Translations under genes and position numbers: made by a program
Notes under the pieces: generated by a model
The model's database searches: none
The model's input: only the letters and a program-made list of their open reading frames with translations
Told to the model about the DNA's origin: nothing
Origin: Candidatus Heimdallarchaeum aukensis
GTDB lineage: Archaea > Asgardarchaeota > Heimdallarchaeia > Heimdallarchaeales > Heimdallarchaeaceae
Direction of reading: 5' to 3'
Assembly (NCBI GenBank): GCA_021513695.1
Contig: CP084166.1
Coordinates: 2,912,001 to 2,976,000, forward strand
DNA length: 64,000 nucleotides
Shown: piece by piece, positions 11,163 to 58,976 of the stretch
Position numbering within the stretch: position 1 is the stretch's first letter
Layout: every line of letters begins with the position of its first letter

Positions 11163-11494
11163 CCCAAAATAAATTTTCTCAGAAATATTATATAAAAATT
11201 ATTTAATATGCAATCGAGTAGAATGCTTGTCTTTATTATCTTCTATAACTTCTTAACTTTGTTTTTTTCTATATTTTTGAAAATTGCTAAAATTGATCAA
11301 TGCGTATTAATTTTAAATTGAATATTGAATAAGTTAAGAATCGAACTTAATATTATCTTTAAACTAACTTAATTTTAATTAATAGAGTTTTTTCAATCTT
11401 ATAATGCCAAACTAAAAAATAGAAGAAATGAATTCTGTTTTAGTTATAGATTCAAAATTAATTCTCGATAAAAAAGAAGAAAAAGTAAGTAAAT

Positions 11495-13140: not shown

Positions 13141-14338
13141 TCTGCCAATCGGGAATAGGGTACCTGTCATCTTTTAATGAATAGGATTTTACGAATAAGT
13201 TGCCTTTTGCATCGTAAACTATTATTTTAAAATCTTTATGTATATCATACTGTATATATCCAAAGTAGTCAATTGGAGCGGTATAATTCAACTCTGTGCT
13301 AGTAATTGTTTGACTATCTACTAAATCCCATCTCCAAAAGCCATATTGATAGTTATGCACATAAAATTCCATTTTAACAACATCTTTAGAGAATAGGAAT
13401 GGAAAAGTTATTCCTGTTGTACTATTAGTTATAGGTTGAGTCCAGCTATTGTCCTTAAAAATAAAATATGGGACAAAAGAATTATCACTTGTAGAATAGA
13501 ACTTGCTTGCTTTAGTTAGAGTATATGTTTCAGAATTTTGGTTATTTTCCACACGGGTAAAATTAACATATGTATTGTAATCAGGTAAATATTCATAGAA
13601 ACTATAAAAAATATCATTATGATAATTTTTCTTATATTCTAGCAAAATTCCGGTGTTGTTGTCAACATAGTAATAACATTCATCGTAATTATAGCTGTGT
13701 GCTGTAGTCTCAACATCGTACCATGTCGAATTCCATGTGTCTTCCCACTCATTCATTTTACAATAATATATGTCTACTTGTAAAGTAAATACTTCACCAT
13801 TAACAACATATGTTCTAGTTTCTTGAGAAATGAATGTTGATGCTCCAAAATAACCTATTGGATCAAAAACTAGATCAGTGTAATTATTAAGGGTCCTATA
13901 ATCAGTATATCCCGAATCCCAAGAATAATTGATTATATCTTCATATTCATTTGAATTGTCTTTATACCAACCATCTGAATTCCATCTGTAATATGTGCTG
14001 TTCCAATAATAGATATAATCGGTGGCTCCCGTTGCAACATCAAAAACTTCAATATAGCTTGAACTTAGGTTTGTGTTTGTAACATTAAAAGCCCTAAGAA
14101 AATTATATTCTTCTTTCCTAAAGTGTACAGATTTGTAAGCATAATTTTCCTTATTATCATCTGGAAAGAATATTTCATTTGTATTAGATTCATAAACTTT
14201 CTTATAATTATAAACGAATTTATCTCCATTATTTAACTGATAAATCTCGGCATTTACTCCTACAGTTTGCAAACTTATGAAAGAAGTAAATGTAGCAATT
14301 AAGATCAAAGCAATAATTAAATTACTTCTTCTTATCAA
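11495..14338 (-). CDS. giant secreted surface glycoprotein, paralog B (947 aa)
   Basis: Same architecture as paralog A. TTG start preceded by GGGGTG. The C-terminal ~470 aa are identical to paralog C apart from a few residues. Confidence 0.7.
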   Translation of the reverse strand: MIRRSNLIIALILIATFTSFISLQTVGVNAEIYQLNNGDKFVYNYKKVYESNTNEIFFPDDNKENYAYKSVHFRKEEYNFLRAFNVTNTNLSSSYIEVFDVATGATDYIYYWNSTYYRWNSDGWYKDNSNEYEDIINYSWDSGYTDYRTLNNYTDLVFDPIGYFGASTFISQETRTYVVNGEVFTLQVDIYYCKMNEWEDTWNSTWYDVETTAHSYNYDECYYYVDNNTGILLEYKKNYHNDIFYSFYEYLPDYNTYVNFTRVENNQNSETYTLTKASKFYSTSDNSFVPYFIFKDNSWTQPITNSTTGITFPFLFSKDVVKMEFYVHNYQYGFWRWDLVDSQTITSTELNYTAPIDYFGYIQYDIHKDFKIIVYDAKGNLFVKSYSLKDDRYPIPDWQSQIETNKEYKGVEDKELILKCLYIYSDTTWKVETRFYYNQSDLTQFWSNYYEGYGNRTLYVWIGGTWAVGDYTVNITFTDAVNTTYSTIVPVTIYPSGTDVDPPDLNVPWYEEKNFGEPHKWAIGDYEEFWFNTWDDNPNYYEFYVDGVLYDTGNYSEQINYYYNFNDLINEVGLHNLTVITYDQFGNYRKESVWVKAYPEGTDLKRPDLWWNVNSYYELGSAERYSFWFNEKNPDYYEIRLNDEIISSGSYDQNYFEIYFTGKELFSETGGHILSLFANDTSGNEMYYEKEINVVPSQPETDPPTFENIYDVDYYRIGDYYDISFYINDKYPDTYNLYINGNLTLSNVPYEGYGWYPENEQHLQLRDYIFEEGTNEIYIEAFDQWGNNNNITIYVNAYTEAYQDDYDAPQIDTNMDYWHAIEYVIGTSKTVKFTLYDANPDYYELYIDDELIKTDSYTDGTTISFNLNTYITEEGIHTIKMVAYDVFGNSNELKLSIKAIYESSSDNTNETTTQDKQTIDLPFSVWSIFIALPVITIIAKKFKKYKT

Positions 14339-14746
14339 CTTAACACCCCAAAATAAAGTTTCTCAGAAATAATATTTAAAAATTACTAATTAAGTAATCG
14401 AGCTGAAATTTTTTTCTATTCTCTTTTTAGAACTTACTAATGATTCTTTTTTCCTTTTTCAGAAAAATTGTTATAATTGGCTGATGATTATAAATCTTAA
14501 AATCGAATATAGATACATTCAGAACTAAAGTTGTAATTATCTTTTAATTGATTTTATTTCATCTCATTCCACTTCATTTAATTTCATTTAATTTCAGTCT
14601 CAATGTTAAGCTAAAAAAGAGAGAATAGGATTCAATTAAAACAATTTTTCTTTCTTTTTTTAAAGCAGAATTTCTTCATTTTCTTATTAGTTTTAAAAAG
14701 TCTAAGATTCAATATTAGTTCTTTTCACTTTTGTTGAAAGTAAGTG

Positions 14747-15712
14747 TCATTTTTTCTTTTCAGCATTTTTTATGGCTACTATTTCTGCAGCTATACTTAT
14801 TGCTATTTCTTCTGGAGTTATACTGTTAATACTTATTCCTATTGGAGAGTGAACTTTTTCTAGCAATTCATCAGATATTCCTTTTTGCTTTAGATTCTCA
14901 AAAAGTTTCTTTTTCTTTGACTTACTAGCCATTAAGCCTATGTATTTGAATTTTTTATGGATAAGTTTTTCTAAAACCAATTCGTCGTACTTATGTCCAA
15001 ACGACATAATAGTTACATACACATTATTTCCTTCTGGTACATATTTTTCTATTTCTTCATAATCTATTACTTTTTTCACATTTGCGTAGTTATTGTTTTT
15101 CATTGTATCGAGATTTTCTCTATTGTCATAAACCGTAATATGGAAATCCAACGTTTTCATTATTCTAGAAAAGGCTAAAGATACATGTCCTCCTCCTACG
15201 ATTATTAATCTATTTCTCAAGCCTATATTTTCTTTAAATGTCCATTTTTCTCCTTCTTCTATGAATTCGTACTGCTTTTCTGACATTTTATCCAGTTCTA
15301 TTTTTAGTCCTTTTTCATTTATTGTAATTATTGCTTGTTCCGCCTTGTTATAAGCGTTTATTATTTTTTGTACTTCACTTTTATCTTTTTCAACTATAGG
15401 AACTATTGCAAACGTTTGTGTTCCTGAGCATACCATCCCTGATTTATGTTCTCCTCCTTTTTCATTATGTATCATAAACTCTTTTTCTGTAGTAAAGTCA
15501 TTTTTTCTTAGTTTTTCTTTCGCTCTTTCTATTAGTTGATATTCCGATAAGCCTCCACCCACTGTTCCTTCTGCTTTTTCTAGTGTTACAAACATTTTTG
15601 CTCCTTCTGCATTGGGAGCTGAACCTTTTCTTTCTATTATTTCTACTAGAACAACGTTTGAGCCTTTTTGAAGCTCAGATAATACACTTTTCCAAAACTT
15701 TTCATCATTCAC
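14747..15712 (-). CDS. xdhC: XdhC/CoxI-family molybdoenzyme maturation factor
   Basis: N-terminal SAPNAEGAKMFV...GTVGGG (XdhC_CoxI) and a C-terminal Rossmann segment LIIVGGGHVSLAFSRIM. Confidence 0.7.
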   Translation of the reverse strand: MNDEKFWKSVLSELQKGSNVVLVEIIERKGSAPNAEGAKMFVTLEKAEGTVGGGLSEYQLIERAKEKLRKNDFTTEKEFMIHNEKGGEHKSGMVCSGTQTFAIVPIVEKDKSEVQKIINAYNKAEQAIITINEKGLKIELDKMSEKQYEFIEEGEKWTFKENIGLRNRLIIVGGGHVSLAFSRIMKTLDFHITVYDNRENLDTMKNNNYANVKKVIDYEEIEKYVPEGNNVYVTIMSFGHKYDELVLEKLIHKKFKYIGLMASKSKKKKLFENLKQKGISDELLEKVHSPIGISINSITPEEIAISIAAEIVAIKNAEKKK

Positions 15713-42699: not shown

Positions 42700-42839
42700 G
42701 ATATAGAAGTAATAGATGTATCTCTTGAAAGATGAAAGTATAGTTATTTATAAATTTAATTTAGCTAAAATAAAATATACTATTGTAGATTATTGAAATT
42801 TAATTCAGTCTAATCATCAAAAAATAAAGAATATCGTTT

Positions 42840-42868
42840 ATTTCAATTCCACTATGTCTGATTCTAAC
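42840..42868 (-). repeat. solitary degenerate CRISPR repeat (one substitution and a 1-nt deletion versus the consensus), same orientation as the array
   Basis: ATTTCAATTCCACTATGTCTGATTCTAAC versus the consensus ATTTCAATCCCACTATGGTCTGATTCTAAC. It lies 504 bp beyond the last canonical repeat. Confidence 0.6.
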
Positions 42869-42877
42869 GTAATTATC

Positions 42878-43192
42878 TTATTGTGTTTTTAAGAGTTTTA
42901 CCAGAGGTTGAATCAACTTGTCAATTCTATCAAAGGCTTCTTTTATATCTTGTTCATATGCCCAAACGTGTATGTCTCCTAACAGCAGTTCTAAATTTCT
43001 ATCTTTTTCTGTTTTCATTAAGGCAAAACCTAACCAATGTCTAACTAATGCTAAAAACCCATCAATTGAACAATTACCTTTTAAAACTTCATTATATTGT
43101 TTTATTATCAATTGTGCTGCTGCAGTAAGAGTTAGTTCTTCTTTGATTTCCTTTGTGTTAGATTTCATTAAGTATAGATTCCTTATAAACAA
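42878..43192 (-). CDS. hypothetical small alpha-helical protein (104 aa) lying between the array's terminal repeat and the solitary degenerate repeat
   Basis: Intact ORF with no motif recognised. Confidence 0.35.
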   Translation of the reverse strand: MFIRNLYLMKSNTKEIKEELTLTAAAQLIIKQYNEVLKGNCSIDGFLALVRHWLGFALMKTEKDRNLELLLGDIHVWAYEQDIKEAFDRIDKLIQPLVKLLKTQ

Positions 43193-43372
43193 ATAAAGGT
43201 TGTTTTTAGTAGTGTTAAAAATGCATTTAGGTGGTTTTTCAGCTCGTCCCTTTACTTTTTACGATGTTTCTAAACTTTTTAAATCTTCAGAAACGGAAAA
43301 AATTGTTAGAAAAAACGTTTCTTACATAATAAAGAAAGAATTTGAATATGTTATTACTAAACAGCTTAATAT

Positions 43373-45865
43373 ATTTCAATCCCACTATGGTCTGATTCTA
43401 ACAAGATTTAACTGATTTTGCTGCGTGTAATATTCCTAGATTTCAATCCCACTATGGTCTGATTCTAACGATTTTAACGAGGGTAACTCTGACGCTGAGC
43501 ATATAAATTTCAATCCCACTATGGTCTGATTCTAACTAAAATAAAATAAAATACAATAAAGGTGATTAATATAATTTCAATCCCACTATGGTCTGATTCT
43601 AACTATGTGGGTAACTTTATTAACTTTAGATGTTAAAAACATTTCAATCCCACTATGGTCTGATTCTAACGCAATCGAACAAACTGACACAAATATTAAC
43701 CTATACATTTCAATCCCACTATGGTCTGATTCTAACACATTTTTGAACCATTTAACAAGTCTAAATTGTTCTATTTCAATCCCACTATGGTCTGATTCTA
43801 ACATTAGTGTTTGGTTTTTTGCTCTATTATTGTCTTTAATTTCAATCCCACTATGGTCTGATTCTAACACAATGATCAAATTTATACCACAACAATTAAT
43901 GCGAAATTTCAATCCCACTATGGTCTGATTCTAACCTACTAATCATGAAGATATAATCTATTCATTTAGTTAATTTCAATCCCACTATGGTCTGATTCTA
44001 ACAAGATAAATGGTCTGAAATCAAAAAACATCATACTTATTTCAATCCCACTATGGTCTGATTCTAACTTAATCATATTCTTATTAATTATGCTTCTGCT
44101 AGTGCATTTCAATCCCACTATGGTCTGATTCTAACAGACTCTTCCCCATTTGTGTGTGAGCAACTAAACAAAATTTCAATCCCACTATGGTCTGATTCTA
44201 ACGATGATCTAAGAGAATTAAACGAATATATCAGCAGAATTTCAATCCCACTATGGTCTGATTCTAACTATGATCCTACGCTTGCTTTGTAATCCTGATG
44301 ATGAATTTCAATCCCACTATGGTCTGATTCTAACTAAGAAAAGAACGCATCAAGCGTTTTCTTGAAGAATAATTTCAATCCCACTATGGTCTGATTCTAA
44401 CTCATCATCAAAATGCCGACGGCTCGACTGAATTTTAATTTCAATCCCACTATGGTCTGATTCTAACTCATTCCTCAACTTGAGAGCGTCAGAATGAGAA
44501 AAAATTTCAATCCCACTATGGTCTGATTCTAACAGGTTATTAATCTGTGAAATAATATTGCTTTCAGTATATTTCAATCCCACTATGGTCTGATTCTAAC
44601 GCAATCGAACAAACTGACACAAATATTAACCTATACATTTCAATCCCACTATGGTCTGATTCTAACACATTTTTGAACCATTTAACAAGTCTAAATTGTT
44701 CTATTTCAATCCCACTATGGTCTGATTCTAACATTAGTGTTTGGTTTTTTGCTCTATTATTGTCTTTAATTTCAATCCCACTATGGTCTGATTCTAACAC
44801 AATGATCAAATTTATACCACAACAATTAATGCGAAATTTCAATCCCACTATGGTCTGATTCTAACGTGATTTTATTAATGATTTTGTTAATAAGCTTAAT
44901 TCATTTCAATCCCACTATGGTCTGATTCTAACTAACTTAACCATGATTGCTGAAGAAGGCGACCCATTAATTTCAATCCCACTATGGTCTGATTCTAACG
45001 GAATATTATTGTTACTGTTAGGTTTTTTGGCTACTTATTTCAATCCCACTATGGTCTGATTCTAACAAATACGAATATTTAGGTAAATGTATTGCTCGAG
45101 CTAATTTCAATCCCACTATGGTCTGATTCTAACAAATACGAATATTTAGGTAAATGTATTGCTCGAGCTAATTTCAATCCCACTATGGTCTGATTCTAAC
45201 TGATCTACACAGTTTATGCTTTGATTGATCGATATTGATTTCAATCCCACTATGGTCTGATTCTAACAGAATTAGCAAATTCAGAAAGAGAGTTAGTTAC
45301 CTGATTTCAATCCCACTATGGTCTGATTCTAACATATGGTCAGAAGTAAACGCAAGATTAGAATTTATTGATTTCAATCCCACTATGGTCTGATTCTAAC
45401 AGCATTTGCCAAAGTAATTAATGCCGAATTCTTGCTTATTTCAATCCCACTATGGTCTGATTCTAACAAAGCAGTACAAATCAAATACAATAATAGATTG
45501 ATAATTTCAATCCCACTATGGTCTGATTCTAACCCAGGAGTTCCTCGCATTCAAAGCATGGAAAGAAAGATTTCAATCCCACTATGGTCTGATTCTAACG
45601 CTCTATTCCATCGCTGAGGCCTAAGCCTAATGCACATTTCAATCCCACTATGGTCTGATTCTAACATTATGGCCTACATAATTTAACAATTAGTATTGTT
45701 AGATTTCAATCCCACTATGGTCTGATTCTAACAATGTCGTAAATGCAGGAATGGAGATTTCTATATTGAATTTCAATCCCACTATGGTCTGATTCTAACC
45801 CATTTACTGAATTCTCTACACATTTAGATCAACTCATTTCAATCCCACTATGGTCTGATTCTAAC
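43373..45865 (-). CRISPR. CRISPR array of 38 identical 30-bp repeats and 37 spacers of 36-37 bp
   Basis: The direct repeat ATTTCAATCCCACTATGGTCTGATTCTAAC recurs with a 66-67-bp period. Read on the minus strand it is GTTAGAATCAGACCATAGTGGGATTGAAAT, ending in the ATTGAAAT 8-nt handle typical of type I-B repeats. This sets minus-strand transcription, leader at the cas2 side. Confidence 0.97.
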
Positions 45866-45964
45866 ACTTCATATTTCCTATATTTTTGATAATAATAAGG
45901 CTTTTCTTTTTATTTACATTCGTGTTCCTCCCATTTGGTGTTTACTTTATAAATATCTACATTC
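45866..45964 (-). promoter_or_regulatory. CRISPR leader (~99 bp, AT-rich) between the cas2 stop and the first repeat
   Basis: Its position, and a TTTATAAA TATA-like element on the transcribed strand about 70-80 nt upstream of the first repeat. Confidence 0.5.
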
Positions 45965-46228
45965 TTATAATATATTTGATTTATTTCCTTTTTGTATTCC
46001 TATTTCTTTTCTTTCTAAATATTTTTCATCTCTTAATGTATATACTAATATACTATCTTCACTTTTTTTTATCATTTTTTCAATATTTTTTATTATTGAG
46101 CGCAATTCTGCTTTTGTTATTTCTCCTTCAAAAACACTATTTTGTATCCATTCCAGATATGTTTTCAGAAACCTTCTTACTTTGTCTATTCTTTCTACTT
46201 TTATATCATATACTATAATAACATACAT
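45965..46228 (-). CDS. cas2: CRISPR-associated endoribonuclease Cas2
   Basis: MYVIIVYDI...NSVFEGEIT matches the Cas2 signature (87 aa). Confidence 0.9.
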   Translation of the reverse strand: MYVIIVYDIKVERIDKVRRFLKTYLEWIQNSVFEGEITKAELRSIIKNIEKMIKKSEDSILVYTLRDEKYLERKEIGIQKGNKSNIL

Positions 46229-46231
46229 GCA

Positions 46232-47218
46232 TTACCACCACGATATAAGTGGTTTGTATTCTAATTCACCCAAAAAGTGTTTACAAAGCTTATATAATTC
46301 AAGCCTTATTAGCCTTTTGTAACTCACATTTCTTTTTAATTCTTTGTGTTTTATTCTTGTTTTTAATTTTTGGTCCCAAAGTTCAATGAATTTTCTTTTT
46401 CCTGTCTCTGATAGCAACAAGTTTCCTATTTTTCCTTCAAAATCTTTATCGTTGAGTATTTTCTTATTTACCAAAGTTAATATTACTCTATCTGATAATA
46501 TGGGTTTAAAAATCTCACTCACATCAAGAGCAAGAGAAAATCTTCTTTCAAAAGGTTCATGTAAATATGAAATTGTAGGATTCAGTTGTGTATTATATAT
46601 TTCTGAGAGTATTGTAGTGTATAGAAGCGAATTACCAAAACTAATTAAAGCGTTCATTCTATTTGTAGGAGGTCTTCTTTCTCTTTTCACAATCTTAAAT
46701 TCTTTAGGAACAATTTGATCAATAGCTAAGTAATATTTATTTCGAATACTGCCTTCCAATCCCATTATCTTCTTAATTTCTAATATTTCTTGAATTTTTT
46801 TTGTTTCTTCTTCTATTTTTGAAATTATGTCACCAATTATTGAATCTTTTCTTCTACTCTTTAGGATTTTAATTATGTTAAAAGCTGAACCTCGAACAAA
46901 TTTTTTAGCTAATTTCAATCTTTTTGGATAAGATAGATAGTGTGCTGCTTGTTTTATAATCATATCTCCGCTAAGCAGTGTTTCTCGGGGATATAATGTA
47001 CTTTTATACCAACCATAATGATCAAAAAAGTGCACTGGAATTCCTTTTTTTCCAAGAAATAATACCACTCCGCCTGATAGAGAAAGATTTCCATATGCGT
47101 AGATTGCATTTATTCTTTCAACAGGTAAAGCTCTTTTCACATCTTTACAATGGAAATACAATGTATTTTCTTTTCTGTATAAAATTCCATTTTTCACAAT
47201 ATAAAATTCTTTTTTCAT
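46232..47218 (-). CDS. cas1: CRISPR-associated integrase Cas1
   Basis: 328 aa with Cas1-like sequence, between cas4 and cas2. Confidence 0.85.
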   Translation of the reverse strand: MKKEFYIVKNGILYRKENTLYFHCKDVKRALPVERINAIYAYGNLSLSGGVVLFLGKKGIPVHFFDHYGWYKSTLYPRETLLSGDMIIKQAAHYLSYPKRLKLAKKFVRGSAFNIIKILKSRRKDSIIGDIISKIEEETKKIQEILEIKKIMGLEGSIRNKYYLAIDQIVPKEFKIVKRERRPPTNRMNALISFGNSLLYTTILSEIYNTQLNPTISYLHEPFERRFSLALDVSEIFKPILSDRVILTLVNKKILNDKDFEGKIGNLLLSETGKRKFIELWDQKLKTRIKHKELKRNVSYKRLIRLELYKLCKHFLGELEYKPLISWW

Positions 47219-47749
47219 CTAAACCACATAACAAAAGTCTTTATACGCACACTTTGTGCATTTTGATGTTTTGATTTTTTTTGGAAGCGGTTTTTCAATT
47301 ATTTTTTCAATTTTGTTCAAAATTAGAAGAAGTTCTTTTTTATTTTCTTCAGTTAAAGTGACATTTTTCTTTTTATTTTCCTTTGGGTAGCGAATTTCTC
47401 CTTCTGCTTTTACTCCGTATCGATCTAAAAAGTAAAGATAGTAAAGTAGCTGATAGTAGTCAGCTTCTTCGTTGATACTTGATTTTTTAACTTCATTTAA
47501 TATTAATTTGTTCTTTTTATGCAAAAAATCTACATTTATAGCATCTAAGATTGTAATGTTTTTTTTCTCTCTCCGATATGATTCTTCATGTATTTGCCTT
47601 CCAATCAAAACTTCTTCATTTTCATTTTCCAATTGAATATTCCTTGCATACAACCATAGTTTCCTTTTACAAATAAAATAATAAGATACCATTACTCCAG
47701 TTATTTGTTTTGAATGTCCAAATAAGTTATTCATCACGTTCACTTTCAA
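47219..47749 (-). CDS. cas4: CRISPR-associated RecB-like nuclease Cas4
   Basis: An N-terminal Cys (YYFICKRK) plus the C-terminal CTKCAYKDFC Fe-S cysteines. 176 aa. Confidence 0.8.
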   Translation of the reverse strand: MKVNVMNNLFGHSKQITGVMVSYYFICKRKLWLYARNIQLENENEEVLIGRQIHEESYRREKKNITILDAINVDFLHKKNKLILNEVKKSSINEEADYYQLLYYLYFLDRYGVKAEGEIRYPKENKKKNVTLTEENKKELLLILNKIEKIIEKPLPKKIKTSKCTKCAYKDFCYVV

Positions 47750-50577
47750 ATTATAAAACTCTGATCAAAAACTTCATTTAGTTTCCTTATATCCAATCCC
47801 TCTTCATAAGAAAACTTGATTAAGTTTAGAAATTCTTTGTTTACTTTAATGTATCCTCCTAATTCCTCAAATTCTCCTGTTCTGACCTTTTCTTTTATTA
47901 AGTGAATTAAAAGACGACTCTTTGAATCTATTTGTACGTATCTATTTGAAAGAGAGACAGTAAACTTGTTTAAATATTTTTGCAATTTCTTTATTTCAAT
48001 ATATCTCTCATTTTTATTTTGATTATTACAAGTAATTTGTAAAAACTTTTTCCAGACTTTTTCTCCACAAATATTAGAATCTTCAACAATCTCATTTTTC
48101 TCTAAAAACTCTTTTTCACTTTCAGGTAGTAGACTCGGGTTAATTTTTAATGATATAGGTAAAAAAATGCTAATAGTGTCACTGTTAATTACTCTGATTT
48201 TTCCTAATTCTTTAAATCTTAAATAGTTCATTGGTTCAATTATTTGCGATATTGTTATTCCATACTCACTTTCTTCTTTCTTTTTATACTCAATGGTATA
48301 CCTGTAGAACTCAGCAAATCTTTTTTCCTTGATAAATTCTTCTAATTCTTCTTTTCTATTTTCTTGGACCTTAAATCTTGTATCTACACCGTATATCATT
48401 TCCGCAGAATCCATATTGTAGACATAGAGTATGCTCTCTTCTTTACTTCTCTTATTTTCTCGATTGATCCTTCCAGCTATTTGTTCGATTGAATCAAGTA
48501 TTGCATATTCTCTAAATCCGAAATCACAATCAATATCTACACCCGCTTCTACTGATTGAGTTGATACCAAAACAACATTCCTTTCATGTGTTTCCTGATT
48601 CATTAATTGAATGATCTCTTTTCGCCTATCTGGAAGAATAGTTGAATTCAATAGGAGTAATTCAAAATTTTTTTTATCTAGATTGTTTTTTAAGTGCTGA
48701 AAGATGTTTATGGAGTTTTGTATTGTATTAGTCACGCAAAGAATTTTTTTCTTCCTTCTTTTACAACAATTTTCATATATTTTCTCTATGAAAAAGTCTA
48801 AAGAAGCAATTTCTTTAATATAGAAATTCAGAGTGTTACGAAGGAATAACTTGCTTTGAAAATACATATCAGAATTTTTTAAAAGAACTGAACATTTGTT
48901 CTTTTGCTCATTATCAAGAAATAGAGATAAATCAGGAAGCGTTGCACTCATTAAAATAAAATACATATTATAATTCTCTGCTAGTTCTCCTATGAGATTA
49001 ATAAAGGCATTCCAAAGATTTACAGGGATTGATTGTACTTCATCCATGATAATAATACTGTTAACAAAATTGTGCAGTTTTATATTAGCTTTTCTGGAAT
49101 TTCTGAAGAAAGTTTCAATAAAGTTAACACTACTAATGATATTGATCTGATTGTTCAGAAACATCTGATTAAGAAGAATTTTAGTCTCTTCGAATTCTTC
49201 CATAGTAAAATCCCATTCTATAAGTGAATAAATCTCTGAAATTGAAATATGTTCATTTTCACTAGAGAGCGTTTCTTTAATGACTTTTGCATTTTGTTCT
49301 ATAATATTAATGAAAGGAAAAACATAGTTGATTCGTTGTAAATTTTTTGTGTGTTGGTTGTTCAGAATGTCTAATGCCAGTTTTATTGACGTATTTGTTT
49401 TTCCGCTCCCTGTTGGTGATCTAAAAAAGAAAATTCGTTTTGCTTTATTTAACTCCTTCTCTAGAATACTACTACATTCAATCAAAATTCTTGTTCGTAG
49501 CTCATTTATATCTTCGATAAAGTTAATGTTTTTCTTTAACAGTTTATCAACTAAAGTTTTATCTTTAATTTGTTGATTAAATATCTTGTTTTTAAAAAAG
49601 TTAGAAACCAAGTTTTTTTTACATTTTTCATCAATTAAATTGAATTCAAGTTCACTTATATCCCAGTTATTTACAAAAGAAGCTGTAGCATAGCTATCAG
49701 CTGAAATTAAGAGAGAAAATATAAGTTTATAAAAATGAAATAGAGTATTTCCATCTTGTAATTTCTCCAAAGTAAATTTTCTTATCTTCGAATTATTGCA
49801 ATATCTTCTGAAAAGACTTAAGTTATCATCTGATATTTCAATTAATGTGCATTTTTTAATAAAGTTTATGTTCCTCTCTTCTAGTAGTTTTTTTTCTCTC
49901 TCCTCTAAATACTCTTCTATATTCTTTAATCTAGAATGATGTCTATTTACACTACTATTTAGAACTAGACTTAAGAAAAACAATTGAAAAGTTAAAAGAA
50001 GAATCTTTTTTTCTTTTTTTTCTCCCTTTTTTTGCTGAATCCCTTTCATAATGTTAAAGATCTCTTGTATGTTAAAATAATCTAAAAATATCTGCCCAAA
50101 CTCACTGTGATTTTTTGAATTACCAAAGAAATTTTCTACCGTTTCCTTTATTTTTTGATCTAATTGTTGAAATGAAAGATTTAATTTTAACACTTTTCTT
50201 TGATAGTTTGGATTTATTTTTCCAAAGTCGTGAAAATAGATTATTCTTGCAATATTTGTTTTTATGAAATCTCCAAATTTGTTTAAAGAAAGAATATCTT
50301 GATCTATATTTAATGCATTATAAATTTTTGTTATCATGTTATTGAAAATATCTTTTAATTTATACTCCTTAATAATTCTTTCAAAAATTTTTAAAGTAAG
50401 TTCAGAGTGTTGAGATAAACTTTCTACTTCGCCTGTTGGAGACATGTGGGCTTTTATTGAACTTTCAACTAATTTAGAAAACTCTTCTACAAGGAATTTA
50501 TCATAACTATATTCACCTAAAATATTAGAACAGGAAAATTGTTTCTCCATTTTCATCACTAACAAGAATATATTCAT
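47746..50577 (-). CDS. cas3: Cas3 HD-nuclease/helicase fusion
   Basis: HD motif IYFHDFGK, Walker A SPTGSGKTN and DExQ box IIMDEVQ. The 5' end overlaps cas5 by 53 bp; the true start may be the Met 8-10 codons downstream. Confidence 0.85.
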   Translation of the reverse strand: MNIFLLVMKMEKQFSCSNILGEYSYDKFLVEEFSKLVESSIKAHMSPTGEVESLSQHSELTLKIFERIIKEYKLKDIFNNMITKIYNALNIDQDILSLNKFGDFIKTNIARIIYFHDFGKINPNYQRKVLKLNLSFQQLDQKIKETVENFFGNSKNHSEFGQIFLDYFNIQEIFNIMKGIQQKKGEKKEKKILLLTFQLFFLSLVLNSSVNRHHSRLKNIEEYLEEREKKLLEERNINFIKKCTLIEISDDNLSLFRRYCNNSKIRKFTLEKLQDGNTLFHFYKLIFSLLISADSYATASFVNNWDISELEFNLIDEKCKKNLVSNFFKNKIFNQQIKDKTLVDKLLKKNINFIEDINELRTRILIECSSILEKELNKAKRIFFFRSPTGSGKTNTSIKLALDILNNQHTKNLQRINYVFPFINIIEQNAKVIKETLSSENEHISISEIYSLIEWDFTMEEFEETKILLNQMFLNNQINIISSVNFIETFFRNSRKANIKLHNFVNSIIIMDEVQSIPVNLWNAFINLIGELAENYNMYFILMSATLPDLSLFLDNEQKNKCSVLLKNSDMYFQSKLFLRNTLNFYIKEIASLDFFIEKIYENCCKRRKKKILCVTNTIQNSINIFQHLKNNLDKKNFELLLLNSTILPDRRKEIIQLMNQETHERNVVLVSTQSVEAGVDIDCDFGFREYAILDSIEQIAGRINRENKRSKEESILYVYNMDSAEMIYGVDTRFKVQENRKEELEEFIKEKRFAEFYRYTIEYKKKEESEYGITISQIIEPMNYLRFKELGKIRVINSDTISIFLPISLKINPSLLPESEKEFLEKNEIVEDSNICGEKVWKKFLQITCNNQNKNERYIEIKKLQKYLNKFTVSLSNRYVQIDSKSRLLIHLIKEKVRTGEFEELGGYIKVNKEFLNLIKFSYEEGLDIRKLNEVFDQSFII

Positions 50578-51319
50578 GAGTTATTGTTTCTTTCACCAAA
50601 AATTCAGAATTTGAAAAAACAACAGTTTTAAAAACATATTGATTTTCTCTGAAACCAATTGGATAATTTTGATAAAAGAAAAAGTCTATATCTGCATTTA
50701 CAATAAGATCTGTTTCATCTTTTGCTACAATATCATTAAAAACAATTGTTTTAAACCTTGTTTCTGTTTCACTAGTGATTTCTTTGTATTCATATTCTCC
50801 TTCATAAATAATACTTAATGGAAATTCGTTTTTCCCCATATAAGGCATGAAATGAGCTCGATTTTCTTGTAAATTTTTCTTTAGTTGAGCAAAAATGTTA
50901 TCTTGAGCAGTTCCTTTTTCTAAATAAATTCGATAAGCAGGCTTAATGAGAATTTGTTCATTTACAATTAAATTTCCTCCCGTTTCATAGCTTCCATAGC
51001 CATGAAAGTTAATAAATTGAATGAACTCTTTTCTTAAAGGCGAATAACTATTTTCAAAATCAGAGTCTTTATATGGTGCTTTAGAGCCTTTTTTAAGCTT
51101 TAAAGGTGTTATTCCAATTCTAATGCCAGAAAGTTTATCAATAAATTCAGGATTTTGCTTTTTTTCTCGATAACCTTCAAGACCTATCAGTGCTCCAAGA
51201 ATTCCAAGTACTGATGGTTTTGGAATAATATCATAGGTCAACTTTGTTTCAGTAATGTCAGGTTTACTAAAAGTTCCAAAGTCAGAAAAAATAATGAAGG
51301 ATAAAAGATTTCTCTTCAT
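50525..51319 (-). CDS. cas5: Cas5 (type I-B)
   Basis: The N-terminus FGTFSKPDITETKLTYDIIPKPSVLGILGALIGLEG matches the Cas5 signature. Confidence 0.8.
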   Translation of the reverse strand: MKRNLLSFIIFSDFGTFSKPDITETKLTYDIIPKPSVLGILGALIGLEGYREKKQNPEFIDKLSGIRIGITPLKLKKGSKAPYKDSDFENSYSPLRKEFIQFINFHGYGSYETGGNLIVNEQILIKPAYRIYLEKGTAQDNIFAQLKKNLQENRAHFMPYMGKNEFPLSIIYEGEYEYKEITSETETRFKTIVFNDIVAKDETDLIVNADIDFFFYQNYPIGFRENQYVFKTVVFSNSEFLVKETITHEYILVSDENGETIFLF

Positions 51320-51327
51320 ATCCTCAC

Positions 51328-52350
51328 CTAACTACTTAAAATGCTCCCGGTTAAGAGATTTTTTATCTCAAAGGTAATTTTCTCGTTTGTACTACTTTTT
51401 TCGATTTCAGTTTTAGCAGGGTCGATATAAACTTCAACTGTTATAGGATTATTCGGTGATAACACTTCTTTATTTTGGTTGATATAGTCCAATAATCTGT
51501 TTATCTTTATTCTAATTTTTCCTTTTTCTTCTGTATTTTCAAAATCTACAAAGTGTTTAAGGTTTTGAAGACAAATTGGATTATCATATTCAATATAGAT
51601 GAAACACTCTGTTTCAGAACCTATTTTTGTTGTTGAATTAACATTATGGACTCCTAATCTTGCTGCTTCCTTGAATATATCTATATCTGAATTAGATAAA
51701 AGGTATTGTTCTTTTTTTTCTAGTTTTTGAAGAACAAAATCTGACATTAAAGCATTTGGATTAATGATGTAATCAAATACATAGTGTATCTCTAATGCTT
51801 TTGTTTCTTCACCTATAGTTGTGTGCTTTGCTTCCTGTCCTTCTTTATCATCTCTATATGGAGATAATATCTGATTTATGTAATGGATATTCTCTTTTGT
51901 TGCGTTGATCCCATAGGAAATTTGTATTGGTCCTGTTATCGATAAACTTGAAAGATTTTTGCTTTTTGGAGCAAAAGTTACTCCAAACATTCTTACATCA
52001 ATGCAAGAAAGCAAATTTCTTAGGATTTGTCTGTCATCTTCTTTTTTATTTTTGTCATCAGAACTAAATAATGCATAGTAATTTTCCTCTAAGGTCATTG
52101 GACTTAGGTTGTCATTCCTTCTTCTCCAAGCGAAAATCTTAGAATCAGTTTTATTGTCTAGGATATATTTTCTGATGCAGTATTTCAGCGATTTATCTGT
52201 AGCATATATAGTCCCTTTCTCATCAGGAAGTCTTCTTGGCGTTCCTGAAAAGTCAGCATTGAAATTACTGTTTACTGACTTTACAATGATTAAGCCACTT
52301 ACGTGCTTTTCAAAAAGGTTATTTTCTGTATTGTTTTGATTTTCTTTCAA
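51328..52350 (-). CDS. cas7: Cas7 (Csh2/Cst2-type backbone subunit)
   Basis: GLIIVKSVNSNFNADFSGTPRRLPDEKGTIYATDKSLKYCIRKY matches the Cas7 N-terminal signature. Confidence 0.85.
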   Translation of the reverse strand: MKENQNNTENNLFEKHVSGLIIVKSVNSNFNADFSGTPRRLPDEKGTIYATDKSLKYCIRKYILDNKTDSKIFAWRRRNDNLSPMTLEENYYALFSSDDKNKKEDDRQILRNLLSCIDVRMFGVTFAPKSKNLSSLSITGPIQISYGINATKENIHYINQILSPYRDDKEGQEAKHTTIGEETKALEIHYVFDYIINPNALMSDFVLQKLEKKEQYLLSNSDIDIFKEAARLGVHNVNSTTKIGSETECFIYIEYDNPICLQNLKHFVDFENTEEKGKIRIKINRLLDYINQNKEVLSPNNPITVEVYIDPAKTEIEKSSTNEKITFEIKNLLTGSILSS

Positions 52351-52352
52351 TT

Positions 52353-54425
52353 TTAATCCTCCTTTTTCATGAAAAATATATTTTCATCAAAAAATCCAAC
52401 GTAGAAACTCATTTTAATCTCATTAAAGGGTTGTGAAAAGTTATTTGCCAAATAATTCAGTGTCTCAGCAAAAACGATGTGTCTAAAGTCCTTGTATTCA
52501 GAGATTTCATGAAGATATTTTTCTAGATATTTTTCTAACAAAATTCTCTTTAAGTTTATAGGCGATTGTACAGACACTAAAGGTGTTAGTAGTTTCATTT
52601 TTTTATCTGCGTTGGATTTGCTGATTAAGTAGTAAACCATTTGTCCTAAATAATAGGCAAATTTTTCAGGGGAATCGATCTTAAAAGATTCTCCGTTAAT
52701 TATTTTCTTTTTTTCTTCTCTTATTTTGTCTAACATGATCTCACCATTTTTATTTTTTTTAATAAAATTATCATTTACTTTACTAAAAAGATCAGCGTTA
52801 AGATAAAAGTTTAAAATTTCATGTATCTGACTTTTTGTTGAAGTATTTTTTCCAGTTTCACTGTGCATTATAAATTTATTTTCTAATAATTTAGTTGTAA
52901 TTTCAGCAATATCGTTATCTGTTAAACATATCTCGCTTCTATAAATTGTATCAAAGAATTTTTTTCTATACTTGTAGATAAGATATTTTTGTTCTGTTAT
53001 ACCACTTTTTTTCTTTGTGTCTAAATCCCCAAAGAACTTGATCTTAAGATCAAAAATTTTTTTTAACTTTTTCAACAAATCTTCTTTTCCAAATTTCTTA
53101 CTAGATTGTGTTCCAAGATATTCTTTATATTCGGAATTTCCGTTGAAGTACAGACGATAGTTAGATATGTAATCAAAAAAAATGATCGATTTTTTATTTA
53201 TTATATTTACTAATATGATATCAAATGAATTTAGGTTGCTTCTTTTTTGAATTTCCTTTATTGTCAAAAAAAAGAATTTTCTTTTATTTTTATTATCCTT
53301 TTCTAATGATTTTAATGACTTAATAAAGTCTATTTGTTCTTTAACTAAGCTTTCTTTGATAAAAAGTGGAAAAATGTTTATCTTATTTTCTTTAAGAAAA
53401 TAGAGAAAGTTATTAAAATATTCTGCGCATGAAATACAAATTTTTATTGTATGTTTAAGATGCCTGTCAAATTTAATAGAAAAAGGCTTTTTTTCATTAA
53501 ATGATGTATAATTTGAAATATTTCCCATTTCTCCTTTTCTTCCACAAACAGGGCAAGTAGACTCAATAATTGTGTCTCTGGTAACAAACAACTTAAGAAT
53601 AATGTATTGTTCAAAAAGCTCTTCTATAACTTGATAGTTTTTATAGTTTAAGAAAACATATGCTTTGTCACATAATCTCAATAGTATATTTAGTTTTTTT
53701 AGTAAACTATACTCTTGTTCTGATACTTGATTTCTTATATTATCTATGTACTTTTTGCTTTTAATATTCTTATATTCTCCTTCTTGTAAATTAGTTCCAC
53801 CTAAAATATCCTTATTATTTTGGTCTAATAAACCAAATATGTTAAGTAATTCTCGATAAAAATGTTCATAAGTGAGCATAATCTTTGTCTTTTCTTTGTT
53901 TTTGTTTGAAGTAATTATCTCATTGATAAATTCCTTTGTTTTGTTATTTTTGACTGTATTTAAAATTAATTTCAAGTATTCGTTTTTTAAGTTAAGTTTT
54001 GAGATTCTTTCGAGAGGTTTATTTTTTCCCTTTTCATAAAGCGGATTTCTGAATAAACTTCCTAGTTTAAAATGAAATAATGAAAAAGTGTTTAATCCGC
54101 TTGTACTTCCTATGTACTTATTAGAATCTGATATTGTGGAAGTATATTTTTTAAAATCTAGTACTTTTATTAGTTCTTTTTCTTTTCTTAAAAGACTAAA
54201 AGGTTCTTTATTTGGAAAATCTTGAACAAGCTCATCATTTAGATCGGTTATTATTCTAAATCCTTTATATGAATTTTCTAGATTCCAATCTACTTCAATG
54301 AGAAAAATAACAGGAAATTGTTCTTTAATAGAATCAATATCATAATCTTCACTTACTACTAACTGTTGAGTGTTTTTTTCCATCTTTTCAAGTTCTTTCA
54401 TAAATTTAATTGATTCGATTATCAT
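52353..54425 (-). CDS. cas8b: Cas8b (type I-B large subunit)
   Basis: A 690-aa protein between cas6 and cas7 with an internal Zn-finger-like CPVCGRKGE...CISCAEYF. Confidence 0.65.
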   Translation of the reverse strand: MIIESIKFMKELEKMEKNTQQLVVSEDYDIDSIKEQFPVIFLIEVDWNLENSYKGFRIITDLNDELVQDFPNKEPFSLLRKEKELIKVLDFKKYTSTISDSNKYIGSTSGLNTFSLFHFKLGSLFRNPLYEKGKNKPLERISKLNLKNEYLKLILNTVKNNKTKEFINEIITSNKNKEKTKIMLTYEHFYRELLNIFGLLDQNNKDILGGTNLQEGEYKNIKSKKYIDNIRNQVSEQEYSLLKKLNILLRLCDKAYVFLNYKNYQVIEELFEQYIILKLFVTRDTIIESTCPVCGRKGEMGNISNYTSFNEKKPFSIKFDRHLKHTIKICISCAEYFNNFLYFLKENKINIFPLFIKESLVKEQIDFIKSLKSLEKDNKNKRKFFFLTIKEIQKRSNLNSFDIILVNIINKKSIIFFDYISNYRLYFNGNSEYKEYLGTQSSKKFGKEDLLKKLKKIFDLKIKFFGDLDTKKKSGITEQKYLIYKYRKKFFDTIYRSEICLTDNDIAEITTKLLENKFIMHSETGKNTSTKSQIHEILNFYLNADLFSKVNDNFIKKNKNGEIMLDKIREEKKKIINGESFKIDSPEKFAYYLGQMVYYLISKSNADKKMKLLTPLVSVQSPINLKRILLEKYLEKYLHEISEYKDFRHIVFAETLNYLANNFSQPFNEIKMSFYVGFFDENIFFMKKED

Positions 54426-55141
54426 TCAATCACCTCAATACAACCAAATCCCAACCCTGTTTTCTCTCCAAGGCCTGTATTGTATGCAAATTTTAACAAT
54501 TCTCTACTCGCTTGGACATCAAATGTCATCAAAGTACATCTTCTGTAGCTATTTTTTATTAAAACTCTTTTTAGTTTTAAATTGCGAATACTCGTTATTT
54601 CAAAGAAGTCTTGCTTCGGTTTTCTTCCAAAATATCTATAATATCTTTCTAACAGGTTTTTATGTAAATTTTCACTAAATTTAAGATCCCTTGGTGTAAG
54701 GTCATAAGGTTTTAGCTTTCCTTCTTTGTTGCGTCTCAAAGTCTTAACATATATTGGAGAAAGTGTTTTTAAAGTACAATCTGATTTAATATTTTTTTTA
54801 TTTTCAATTTTAATTCTCTTTACTACAAACTGCTGGGTCCCTAAATGGAATTTTAAATCTTTAAAAACGCCTGTTGCTAATCCGTCTAAAAATTCGTTAT
54901 CGATGGATGTAAAGTAAAAGAATGCTTCTTTAAAATATAATCCTTTTTTTGAAAATTTTTTCTCTTCTATTATTAAATTTGAAAAATTGTAATATTTGAA
55001 CTTTGTTTTTCTGTGTAATCTTTGTGAGACTTCTTTCTTTGAATCACTGATTTTTCTTAATATTGCACTAGTTAACCAATGTTGATAATTAAAATTTAAT
55101 GGACCATCAGTGATCTTTTCAACAAAGATTTTTAATCTCAT
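54422..55141 (-). CDS. cas6: Cas6 pre-crRNA endoribonuclease
   Basis: The C-terminal glycine-rich loop GLGEKTGLGFGCIEV. First gene of the operon. Confidence 0.8.
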   Translation of the reverse strand: MRLKIFVEKITDGPLNFNYQHWLTSAILRKISDSKKEVSQRLHRKTKFKYYNFSNLIIEEKKFSKKGLYFKEAFFYFTSIDNEFLDGLATGVFKDLKFHLGTQQFVVKRIKIENKKNIKSDCTLKTLSPIYVKTLRRNKEGKLKPYDLTPRDLKFSENLHKNLLERYYRYFGRKPKQDFFEITSIRNLKLKRVLIKNSYRRCTLMTFDVQASRELLKFAYNTGLGEKTGLGFGCIEVIE

Positions 55142-55973: not shown

Positions 55974-56003
55974 TTTATAATCAGACCATAGCGGGATTGA
56001 AAT
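55974..56003 (+). repeat. solitary degenerate CRISPR repeat in crRNA orientation on the plus strand (3 mismatches versus the consensus)
   Basis: TTTATAATCAGACCATAGCGGGATTGAAAT versus GTTAGAATCAGACCATAGTGGGATTGAAAT. It lies 29 bp after the csa3 stop. Confidence 0.55.
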
Positions 56004-56324: not shown

Positions 56325-57305
56325 ATGACAGTCATACTTCAAACTAGAAATTTGTATAAGACATATGATAAAAAGGTTAAAGCCGTACAAGGAATAGATT
56401 TAGAAATAAAAAATGGAGAAGTTTTTGGATTACTTGGTCCAAATGGCGCAGGAAAAACGACTTTAATAAAGATGCTCGTTGGAATCTTGAAACCTGACAA
56501 AGGAGAAATTTTGTTCAATGGCATTAAATTAAACGGTACGACTGAACTAAAAGGACTGATAGGTTATGCTCCACAAGAATTAGTTTTCTATCCTTTCTTA
56601 ACTGTCTTAGAAAACATGCAACTTTTTGCTAGTCTTTACTCGATTAAAAATGCAAGAAAACGTATAGATGAAATTTTAGAACTTTTTCAACTTACAGAGT
56701 TGTCAAAAAGACAAGCTGAAAAGATGTCAGGAGGTCAGAAGCGTCGATTAAATATTGCTTTAAGTTTACTTCACTCACCACAGATTCTCTTTTTAGATGA
56801 ACCTTCTTCAGGTATGGATCCGCAGAGTAGAAATGTGTTATGGGAAAGTGTAGAACAATTAAAAGAGAAAGAAGGGGTAACCATCCTTTTATCAACTCAT
56901 TTAATGGAAGTAGCTGATAAACTGAGCGATAGAGTTGCGATAATTGATCATGGAAAGGTTCTAACAGTTGGAACACCTGATGAGTTAAAATCAAAACATG
57001 CATCTATTGAGACAGTGGAAATTCAATTTGCAAAAAATATTTCTCCTTTAATACAAGAAAAAATAACTCTTCAGTTGAAAGATAAGTATGAACAGCTTTC
57101 GACAGCAAATGACAGGTTCTTTATTAAAACAAAAAACGGTTTGAAAGCAATATCTGATATTATGAAAACTATTGAAAGTCTAGCAGTTCTTTCCTACTTA
57201 CAAGATATACAACTTCGTCTTGGAACGTTAGAAGATGTATTTTTGAATCTAACAGGAAAAGAACTTAGAGAAAATAATTTTAGTTTTGGAGGTGATAGGA
57301 GATGA
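56325..57305 (+). CDS. ABC transporter ATP-binding protein (ABC-2 exporter type)
   Basis: Walker A GPNGAGKTT, signature LSGGQKRRL and Walker B LFLDEPSSGMD. Confidence 0.9.
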   Translation: MTVILQTRNLYKTYDKKVKAVQGIDLEIKNGEVFGLLGPNGAGKTTLIKMLVGILKPDKGEILFNGIKLNGTTELKGLIGYAPQELVFYPFLTVLENMQLFASLYSIKNARKRIDEILELFQLTELSKRQAEKMSGGQKRRLNIALSLLHSPQILFLDEPSSGMDPQSRNVLWESVEQLKEKEGVTILLSTHLMEVADKLSDRVAIIDHGKVLTVGTPDELKSKHASIETVEIQFAKNISPLIQEKITLQLKDKYEQLSTANDRFFIKTKNGLKAISDIMKTIESLAVLSYLQDIQLRLGTLEDVFLNLTGKELRENNFSFGGDRR

Positions 57306-58603
57306 ATTTGAGAAATAACAAGTTTGTTCAACTATTAAGTGTAAACCTTAAAGCAATTTATAGACAAAGAATGGTTCTTTTCTTTACGCTTCTCTTTCCC
57401 TTGATATTTATTGGTGTTTTCGGTATATCCTATGGTGGAGATGGGGCAACAACTCGTACTATGGATCTTATAGTAATTAACAATGATTTAGGTATTCCTG
57501 AAAACACTGTAGCTTTTTATGGAAATGAAACTGTTTCAGGGACATTTTACTCTGAAAAGTATTTAGAATTACTAGGCAATCTTGTTTACCCGGATTCAAA
57601 AGACAATAAATCTGTTTTTTTTATTACTGTCATCAATGAAACAGAAAGAGACAATGCACTGTTCAAACTTGAACGAAGAGAAATCGTTGCTCTTCTTACT
57701 TTACCTGAAGATTTTAGTTTAGGTATACTCTTTAGTTTTAGAACACAATTTAGCAACGATAGCTTCTTTTCTTTATTGACTAACAATTGGTCTGGTTACC
57801 CAGAAAGCTCACTTTCGGTAGAAATTACTATACTAGGAGACTCAAGTACAGAAGAGTTTGCTATTGCAGGGCCTATTATAAATGAATTCAGTAAAATGTT
57901 TTTTCAGCTAGGAAATGAACAACAAACTGGAGTGAATGTTAACATAATCGGAAACTACCAAACTAAAGGTTTCAGCACATTTTACTATATTGTTCCTGGT
58001 GTTATAATTTTCGGTGTGTTGCAATCCCTCACTTCTGGAGCAAGCAGAACTATGCGCGATGTAGACTCAAAGAATTTGGAAAGAATTCGTTTAACTCGTG
58101 TAGCTTCTTATACTTATGTAAGCGCGCTTATTGTTAGTCAAGCCTTGTTAGTTGCTATTCAAGTACCAATAATGTTTGTAACAGCAATGCTTTTTGGATT
58201 AGAACTATCGATACATGTATTAAGCGGAATAATTGTAGGAATTATTCTTTCTTTCGCCACTACAGGAATAGCCTTTTTGCTTGCTGGACTTGTACGTAAA
58301 GGTGACGAAGCAGAAGGGTTAGCTAATCTTATAGCTGTTCCAATGGCTTTTCTCTCTGGATCTTTTACCGTTATGCCAAACCCTGAAATTCTTCCTAATG
58401 TTGGCTGGTTAGGAGGAAACTCTTTGCGATTGTTTGATTTCTTGCCTTCTACCCCTGCTGTAAGAATATTACGTTCTTTAATTCTTGGACAAAGAACTTT
58501 AGGTGAGAATTGGTTTGATCTATGTCTATTAACTCTGCTAGCCTTTCTCTACCTTGGACTGGGGTTGGGTGTATATATTCAAAAACACTTGAGAATGAAA
58601 TAG
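57302..58603 (+). CDS. ABC-2 type transporter permease
   Basis: An N-terminal TM helix, a large extracytoplasmic loop and a C-terminal multi-TM bundle. Start overlaps the ATPase gene by 4 bp. Confidence 0.75.
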   Translation: MNLRNNKFVQLLSVNLKAIYRQRMVLFFTLLFPLIFIGVFGISYGGDGATTRTMDLIVINNDLGIPENTVAFYGNETVSGTFYSEKYLELLGNLVYPDSKDNKSVFFITVINETERDNALFKLERREIVALLTLPEDFSLGILFSFRTQFSNDSFFSLLTNNWSGYPESSLSVEITILGDSSTEEFAIAGPIINEFSKMFFQLGNEQQTGVNVNIIGNYQTKGFSTFYYIVPGVIIFGVLQSLTSGASRTMRDVDSKNLERIRLTRVASYTYVSALIVSQALLVAIQVPIMFVTAMLFGLELSIHVLSGIIVGIILSFATTGIAFLLAGLVRKGDEAEGLANLIAVPMAFLSGSFTVMPNPEILPNVGWLGGNSLRLFDFLPSTPAVRILRSLILGQRTLGENWFDLCLLTLLAFLYLGLGLGVYIQKHLRMK

Positions 58604-58628: not shown

Positions 58629-58976
58629 TTATCCTTCTTTTTTTTCTTCTAGTATGGTTGTTAATGCTGTGGTCATTAGATTTGCATACTCTTGGATAGA
58701 GTTTACCCCTTTCTCTGTTAAATATAAAATAGTTGTAGGTTTGGCTTTAATGAACGCTTTTTGAACTTCAATTAATCCATTCTCTTCTAGTTTCTTAATG
58801 TGAGAAGAAAGATTACCTGCAGTTAAGTCTAAAACCTTTTGAACTTCAGTGAAAAGAGCTTTTCCTTTAGGTAAAAGAAATATCATAATCGCTAGTCTAA
58901 CAGGTGTGTGAATAATATCATTAACACTAGCGACTTCTTTGAGAACATTCTCCTCCTCAGAACTCTCTTCACGCAT
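58629..58976 (-). CDS. ArsR/SmtB-family winged-helix transcriptional regulator
   Basis: PVRLAIMIFLL...FTEV...TAGNLSSHIKKLEENGLI HTH pattern (115 aa). Confidence 0.65.
   Translation of the reverse strand: MREESSEEENVLKEVASVNDIIHTPVRLAIMIFLLPKGKALFTEVQKVLDLTAGNLSSHIKKLEENGLIEVQKAFIKAKPTTILYLTEKGVNSIQEYANLMTTALTTILEEKKEG

Follow-up and report, generated by a model that had tools for sequence, protein, structure and literature searches.

The CRISPR array at the C2 locus of Candidatus (Ca.) Heimdallarchaeum aukensis (Wu et al. 2022) carries two exact internal duplications: a block of four spacers that occurs twice, 14 repeat-spacer units apart, and a single spacer that is repeated in tandem. The array lies within the stretch of 64,000 nucleotides that we analyzed here (contig CP084166.1, positions 2,912,001 to 2,976,000; hereafter referred to as the window), beside a complete type I-B cas operon on the minus strand. 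Both duplications are probably rearrangements of the DNA that came about through misalignment among the 38 identical 30-nt repeats of the array, either during replication or through homologous recombination, and would have arisen without any involvement of the spacer-acquisition machinery. The phenomenon is already known, and the Heimdallarchaeum array provides one more instance of it; its only slightly unusual trait is that the two copies of the block are dispersed and not adjacent to each other.

Two exact duplications within one CRISPR array

A pattern scan recovers 38 exact copies of the repeat ATTTCAATCCCACTATGGTCTGATTCTAAC between positions 43373 and 45865 of the window. Together with the 37 spacers of 36-37 nt that they separate, these repeats make up 2493 bp of DNA with the regular, identical short repeats and the spacers of similar length by which a CRISPR array is recognized (Table 1). 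We number the spacers W1 to W37 in plus-strand order; the array itself is transcribed on the minus strand. In the RNA sense, the repeat reads GTTAGAATCAGACCATAGTGGGATTGAAAT, and its terminal ATTGAAAT is presumably the usual 8-nt handle of the CRISPR RNAs (crRNAs) of type I-B systems. No Rfam family was found at gathering score across positions 42700-46100, and the fold of the repeat RNA is not significant (z = -0.07).

A first-pass annotation of this DNA had reported that a four-spacer block is present twice in exact form, that the spacers on the flanks of the two copies differ, and that one further spacer is immediately repeated. Our analysis bears this out, and the coordinates given there are correct throughout. 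The two copies, referred to here as copy A and copy B, are identical at 295/295 nt, no additional matching base is found beyond either edge, and they are offset from each other by 930 bp, corresponding to the 14 units mentioned above. Spacers W5, W6, W7 and W8 of copy A recur as W19, W20, W21 and W22 in copy B, with order, lengths, orientation and register all kept. On one side, the copies are flanked by W4 and W18, respectively, and on the other by W9 and W23, and each of the spacers W9-W18 that lie between them is present once, as judged from a comparison of spacer pairs. In the second duplication, W26 equals W27, and the full 97-nt unit at 45037-45133 is found again at 45104-45200 (97/97 nt).

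Both duplications comprise whole units in the same orientation and in register; identity stops exactly at the borders of spacers, with the breakpoints lying within repeats. The remaining spacer pairs of the array share at most 16 nt. As the number of identical 36-mers expected by chance over 666 spacer pairs is about 1e-19, chance is ruled out as the source of the identical spacers. Extra copies account for 5 of the 37 spacers in the array (13.5%).

Polarity of the array and its sister arrays

The PR6 genome of Ca. Heimdallarchaeum endolithica (CP084167.1), a Canu/Nanopore assembly, is the sole genome with this repeat that emerged from a repeat scan of a species-level genome collection, and the flank of its array is about 93% identical to that of the window. 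Its array (PR6 C1) and those on two metagenome contigs of the Joint Genome Institute (JGI), Ga0366833_1014293 (L001) and Ga0366836_1097960 (L008), which stem from different JGI samples, are sister arrays of the one studied here: they possess the identical 30-nt repeat, and the same type I-B operon, leader and trailer.

The leader adjoins cas2, and the oldest spacers are found at the far end of the array. This polarity is fixed by the combination of a 99-nt leader that is conserved in an alignment between Ca. H. aukensis and PR6, the sharing of the farthest spacers with L001, the degenerate repeat that closes the array at its far end and has its counterpart, by alignment, in the terminal repeat of PR6, and a common 5'-CCA motif next to protospacers. 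With the leader positioned next to cas2, copy A belongs to the older portion of the array, and copy B is found 14 units nearer to the leader. The motif derives from the two oldest spacers of PR6: spacer 2 matches the window at 58169-58204 (36/36 nt) and spacer 1 at 58780-58816 (33/35 aligned nt), in the ABC-2 permease gene of HeimM1 and in the winged-helix gene next to it. The trinucleotide 5'-CCA precedes the two protospacers when these are read in the orientation that places the leader next to cas2, and the trinucleotide is consequently a candidate protospacer-adjacent motif (PAM) for the type I-B system. HeimM1 adjoins the C2 cas operon of Ca. H. aukensis and has been described as the target of a pair of PR6 C1 spacers (PMC8813620); the matches reproduce this published cross-species targeting. 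Searches for protospacers of W5, W8, W24 and W26 gave no hits in IMG/VR, and none of the array's own spacers matches elsewhere within the window.

Spacer duplication recurs in this array family, as is evident from the fact that sister arrays obtained with other assembly methods contain exact pairs of their own. A comparison with related arrays, which the first-pass annotation had recommended, revealed an exact tandem spacer pair like W26/W27 in all three of them: spacers 11 and 12 in the PR6 array, and the pair A33/A34 in L001 and again in L008. The two JGI contigs also hold dispersed single-spacer duplicates, with A56 equal to A66 ten units away in L001, and with A39 present twice in L008. 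Over three arrays of the family, the extra spacer copies amount to 8/126. A multi-spacer block duplication, in contrast, was seen in the window array and in none of PR6 C1, L001 and L008.

Turnover of these arrays is very fast relative to point mutation. L001 shows mismatches to the window at 3 of 10,393 compared positions of the cas region, and the 748-nt trailer is identical, while 69 of the 71 spacers in its array (10364-15149) are not present in the window; the two that are shared, W1 and W2, are those farthest from cas2. Apart from W1-W2 in the JGI contigs, the window has in common with the sister arrays only the near-identical pair W24/PR6 spacer 17. Over their 37 nt, these two spacers differ at the PAM-proximal base alone, and they are found at different depths in arrays that otherwise lack common spacers, which suggests independent acquisition of one protospacer from related elements in the two species.

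The arrays of the two JGI contigs also contain irregular sites (L001 12726-12774 and 13472-13548; L008 580-654, 1617-1676 and 2242-2262). They consist of a run of N, and of units in which a partial spacer and a truncated repeat precede the full spacer, and L001 and L008 differ from each other at these sites. What they reflect is either small deletions or partial duplications inside the arrays, or else noise in the metagenome assembly.

A probable misalignment origin of the duplications

The tandem pair W26/W27 would require no more than a one-unit slip or a one-unit unequal exchange between repeats. Its copies are adjacent, as is the case for a simple one-step tandem duplication, and it fits the commonest class of such events, the misalignment by one unit. 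The copies of the four-spacer block are not adjacent. In this case, a 265-nt piece of DNA, comprising the four spacers and their intervening repeats, would have been copied from its original trailer-proximal site to one located 14 units nearer to the leader, and both of the resulting junctions would fall within repeats. The first-pass annotation had attributed both duplications to slippage or unequal recombination between repeats, or alternatively to an assembly artefact. Both candidates are still appropriate, and the biological one is favoured. It agrees with the in-register whole units and with the breakpoints in repeats, but slippage in one step accounts for W26/W27 and not for the block: a single slippage or unequal exchange within one array would double W5-W18, but W9-W18 are single. 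As the block copies are not adjacent, it takes two events to explain them, or else an out-of-register copy that involves two switches.

Three routes to the block can be envisioned, and they are not separated by the data. In route (a), a single out-of-register repair or gene-conversion event with two switches would suffice: in the repeat that joins W18 and W23, a 3' end, either broken or nascent, would pair with the repeat before W5 on another copy of the chromosome, four units would be copied, and the end would then re-anneal through a repeat. Route (b) would start with a tandem duplication of 14 units, W5-W18, after which at least the second W9-W18 would be lost by deletion. In route (c), two diverged arrays, each with W5-W8 retained, would have undergone a single unequal crossover. 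Since route (b) requires a second rare event, routes (a) and (c) would seem more parsimonious.

There is precedent for duplications of this type. In the type III-A array of Streptococcus thermophilus strain JIM8232, spacers 3-8 equal spacers 9-14 (Zhang et al.; PMC8860593), so that an exact multi-spacer block likewise exists in two copies that agree in register and orientation and have their breakpoints in repeats. The copies in JIM8232 are adjacent, whereas those of Heimdallarchaeum are parted by ten unique spacers; furthermore, the bacterial type III-A/II-A systems have been studied by experiment, whereas the archaeal type I-B array is known from assembly alone. The experiments with the S. 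thermophilus type II-A and III-A systems revealed that repeat-spacer duplications arise in cas1 and cas2 deletion strains, and their authors ascribe them to homologous recombination or replication slippage, and not to adaptation (PMC8860593). By analogy, we infer that the duplications in Ca. H. aukensis may be independent of Cas1-Cas2 as well.

Surveys of many arrays point in the same direction. A SpacerPlacer analysis of CRISPRCasdb arrays identified 805 of 24,090 spacers (3.3%) as duplication candidates, 86% of which were simple duplications; at least one candidate was present in 162 of 333 array groups, and the duplications were ascribed to repeat misalignment (PMC11472070). Kupczok et al. 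reported between 1 and 11% duplicated spacers per data set for E. coli, P. aeruginosa, S. agalactiae and S. thermophilus (PMC4524480). Our array has in common with these cases that a spacer occurs twice in one array, in conflict with a strictly polarized insertion. Such duplications had been termed uncommon in the first-pass annotation, which is appropriate in the sense that they are a minority event; nevertheless, they are regularly seen, as they concern about half of the array groups in the SpacerPlacer survey. With 13.5% extra copies, the window array exceeds the 3.3% found overall in that survey, and the array family with its 8/126 spacers is placed near the upper part of the published range.

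Alternative explanations

Acquiring the same spacers anew is excluded as a source of the block by the kept order and lengths of its four spacers. For W26/W27 only, two successive and independent acquisitions of one protospacer by Cas1-Cas2-Cas4 can be considered, although we judge this to be unlikely. The choice of protospacers appears to be constrained, given that W24 and PR6 spacer 17 represent the same 37-nt protospacer with a difference of one base, although they belong to different species and array positions, and given the first 18 nt that spacers A47 and A11 have in common; moreover, W26 and W27 are equal in length and orientation, as they would be if derived from one PAM-anchored site, and the dispersed single duplicates A56/A66 and A39 fit a later re-acquisition at the leader. 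However, only about 1% of the duplication candidates in the SpacerPlacer survey were classed as re-acquisitions, compared with the 86% classed as duplications (PMC11472070), and the presence of an exact adjacent pair in each of three related arrays fits the most frequent misalignment, that by one unit. With re-acquisition failing for the four-spacer block, copying at the level of the DNA is, in addition, already shown in the same array. A different source for the block, recombination between two diverged arrays and not within one as laid out in route (c), strikes us as somewhat unlikely. One parental array would have ended on its leader side at W18, and the other would have contained W5-W8, either with W23-W37 after them or with the leader as their neighbor; the two would have been joined head to tail, with an unequal crossover in the repeats and a second exchange in the identical leader/cas region. 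Neither of these parental arrays turned up in the collections scanned, recombination between arrays is rare in comparative studies (PMC4524480, PMC11472070), and there is no known case of DNA exchange or heterozygous polyploidy for Heimdallarchaeum. These points have to be set against the attractions of a route that needs one event, not two, that accounts for the wholly different spacers after the second copy, and for which natural substrates exist in the form of a strain whose cas genes show 3 mismatches over 10.4 kb, whose trailer is identical and whose array differs completely save for its two oldest spacers.

The duplications are unlikely to be an artefact, and the indirect evidence favours their being real. 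The source genome is a metaSPAdes assembly (k up to 99) of 150-bp paired Illumina reads that was scaffolded by LRScaf with Nanopore reads from multiple-displacement-amplified (MDA) DNA that had been barcoded by polymerase chain reaction (PCR), and polished with Pilon at 346x (Wu et al. 2022). The genome paper de-replicated the spacers and does not mention duplications within an array (Wu et al. 2022). In a de Bruijn assembly with k of at most 99, the existence of the junctions W18-repeat-W5, W8-repeat-W23 and W26-repeat-W26 means that reads contain them. If the true array nevertheless had one copy of the block, one W26, or both, the additional copies could stem from the resolution of repeats by metaSPAdes, from scaffolding or gap filling with chimeric MDA/PCR reads, or from merged variants of co-existing strains; we view any such error as quite unlikely. 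It is true that the 295-nt block exceeds both k and the read length, so that read pairs or the Nanopore reads from amplified, barcoded DNA were needed to resolve it, that strains with near-identical cas genes but different arrays co-exist in related samples, and that related metagenome contigs show trouble within arrays in the form of a run of N and of partial spacer units. Yet an assembler will usually collapse repeats and not create them, each of the four junction types is clean and keeps the register, the polished sequence has no inexact repeat, and exact tandem pairs are also found in independently assembled sister arrays from three different pipelines, with the JGI pair present in two separate samples. 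We reject a simple strain-merge artefact, because an overlap at k=99 would duplicate about one spacer plus leader sequence at most, and cannot give a clean in-register 295-nt copy together with a W18-repeat-W5 junction.

Several points nonetheless weigh against an origin by misalignment between repeats. No intermediate or parental array of the kind expected under routes (b) and (c) was encountered, and a misalignment by 14 units would be rare whatever the route if the geometric distribution of block lengths in bacteria, with a mean of 2.7 units (PMC11472070), also holds here. The proposed independence from Cas1-Cas2 is borrowed from a study on bacterial type II/III systems. Furthermore, the arrangement of W3-W37 is known from a single published assembly, for which Nanopore reads of MDA-amplified DNA were used in scaffolding, and the collections searched contain no independent copy of it: a scan of metagenome contigs with spacer W6 gave no match, a scan with the repeat gave no more than two contigs, both of which had one repeat at the edge of an array, and exact-protein look-ups of two spurious open reading frames (ORFs) running through block copies A and B, and a look-up of the flanking IOR-alpha protein, gave no match either.

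Genes and solitary repeats around the array

The coordinates of the array, its parts and the cas operon are compiled in Table 1. The 690-amino acid (aa) protein encoded at the position expected for cas8b has no NCBIfam or Pfam match, which points to a highly divergent large subunit.

Table 1. Features of the CRISPR locus in the window; positions are those of the window.
Feature	Position	Strand	Remarks
Degenerate terminal repeat	42840-42868	-	One substitution and one deletion
Spacer-position segment	42869-43372	-	504 bp, between last full repeat and degenerate terminal repeat
96-aa protein gene	42878-43168	-	Inside the 504-bp segment, same direction as array
CRISPR array	43373-45865	-	38 identical 30-nt repeats and 37 spacers (W1-W37)
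Block copy A	43641-43935	-	Trailer-proximal, older position; five repeats and W5 (43671-43706), W6 (43737-43772), W7 (43803-43838), W8 (43869-43905)
Separator between block copies	43936-44570	-	635 bp; ten unique spacers W9-W18 and nine repeats
Block copy B	44571-44865	-	Leader-proximal; five repeats and W19 (44601-44636), W20 (44667-44702), W21 (44733-44768), W22 (44799-44835)
Spacer W24	44933-44969	-
Tandem single-unit duplication	45037-45200	-	Repeat-W26-repeat-W27-repeat; W26 (45067-45103), W27 (45134-45170)
Leader	45866-45964	-	AT-rich stretch of 99 nt between cas2 stop codon and first repeat
cas2	45965-46228	-	TIGR01573, 58 bits (cut-off 24.5)
cas1b (type I-B cas1)	46232-47218	-	TIGR03641, 447 bits (cut-off 304)
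cas4	47219-47749	-	Above family cut-off
cas3 (HD and helicase)	47746-50577	-	Above family cut-off
cas5b	50525-51319	-	TIGR02592, 106 bits (cut-off 97)
cas7	51328-52350	-	Family score under cut-off
690-aa protein in cas8b position	52353-54425	-	Assigned by operon position only
cas6	54422-55141	-	Above family cut-off

At the trailer end, the array is extended by a segment in spacer position that harbors a gene for a 96-aa protein. This protein is 100% identical to K9W45_13010 of Ca. Heimdallarchaeum aukensis, lacks Pfam and NCBIfam hits, and has only two homologues among 5.8 billion proteins, both of them from Heimdallarchaeum. Its structure is predicted to be a four-helix bundle (predicted local distance difference test score, pLDDT, of 80), for which Foldseek found no match in the PDB at E <= 0.001. 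In PR6 (CP084167.1; L013, 9960-10750), an orthologue (80% identity) is accompanied by a divergently oriented paralogue of 97 aa (41% identity). Both genes adjoin csa3, on the opposite side of the operon, and have as their neighbor a solitary CRISPR repeat with 2 mismatches (10721-10750), which lies 41 nt upstream of the 97-aa ORF and is in sense orientation. As its location differs between the two species, the gene for the 96-aa protein has changed sides, and it adjoins a repeat in both. This is a hint that the repeats of the locus take part in larger rearrangements.

The window itself contains a solitary repeat, TTTATAATCAGACCATAGCGGGATTGAAAT, at 55974-56003 on the plus strand, with 3 mismatches and inverted relative to the array. 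It is positioned 28 nt past the csa3 stop codon, at the border of HeimM1 (ABC transporter genes at 56325-58603), and this position is conserved in PR6. No second repeat follows it. We considered the solitary repeat as the head of a crRNA-like regulator but dropped this idea, as the following 36 nt have no seed-plus-PAM match in the window. At a distance from the CRISPR locus, Tandem Repeats Finder detected a 9-bp tandem repeat, AGTTGGGTC, at 8382-8450 (7.7 copies, 91% matches), which could belong to the intragenic tandem repeats that have been mentioned for these genomes.

Consequences of the duplications

The effects of the duplications are modest. The crRNAs for five spacers are encoded twice in the array, and no new specificity is gained thereby. 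The 295-nt copies form a direct repeat that is much longer than the 30-nt repeat, so that a later loss of the intervening 14 units is to be expected. Duplicated units inflate spacer counts, and they break the assumption that the order of spacers in an array equals the order of their acquisition, on which strain histories reconstructed from arrays are built. The stretch is also flagged here for checking at the level of reads in the genome of Ca. H. aukensis, which is one of the two circularized Heimdallarchaeum genomes. Finally, the repeats of this locus might be unusually active substrates for an out-of-register copy-and-paste recombination, for instance through gene conversion between copies of the chromosome. 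We deem this an improbable reading of the data; if true, spacer blocks would be scattered within arrays, whole gene cassettes, with the gene for the 96-aa protein as a candidate, would perhaps be moved between repeat sites, and the CRISPR repeats would serve as portable recombination sites and thereby reshape the defence locus of an Asgard archaeon.

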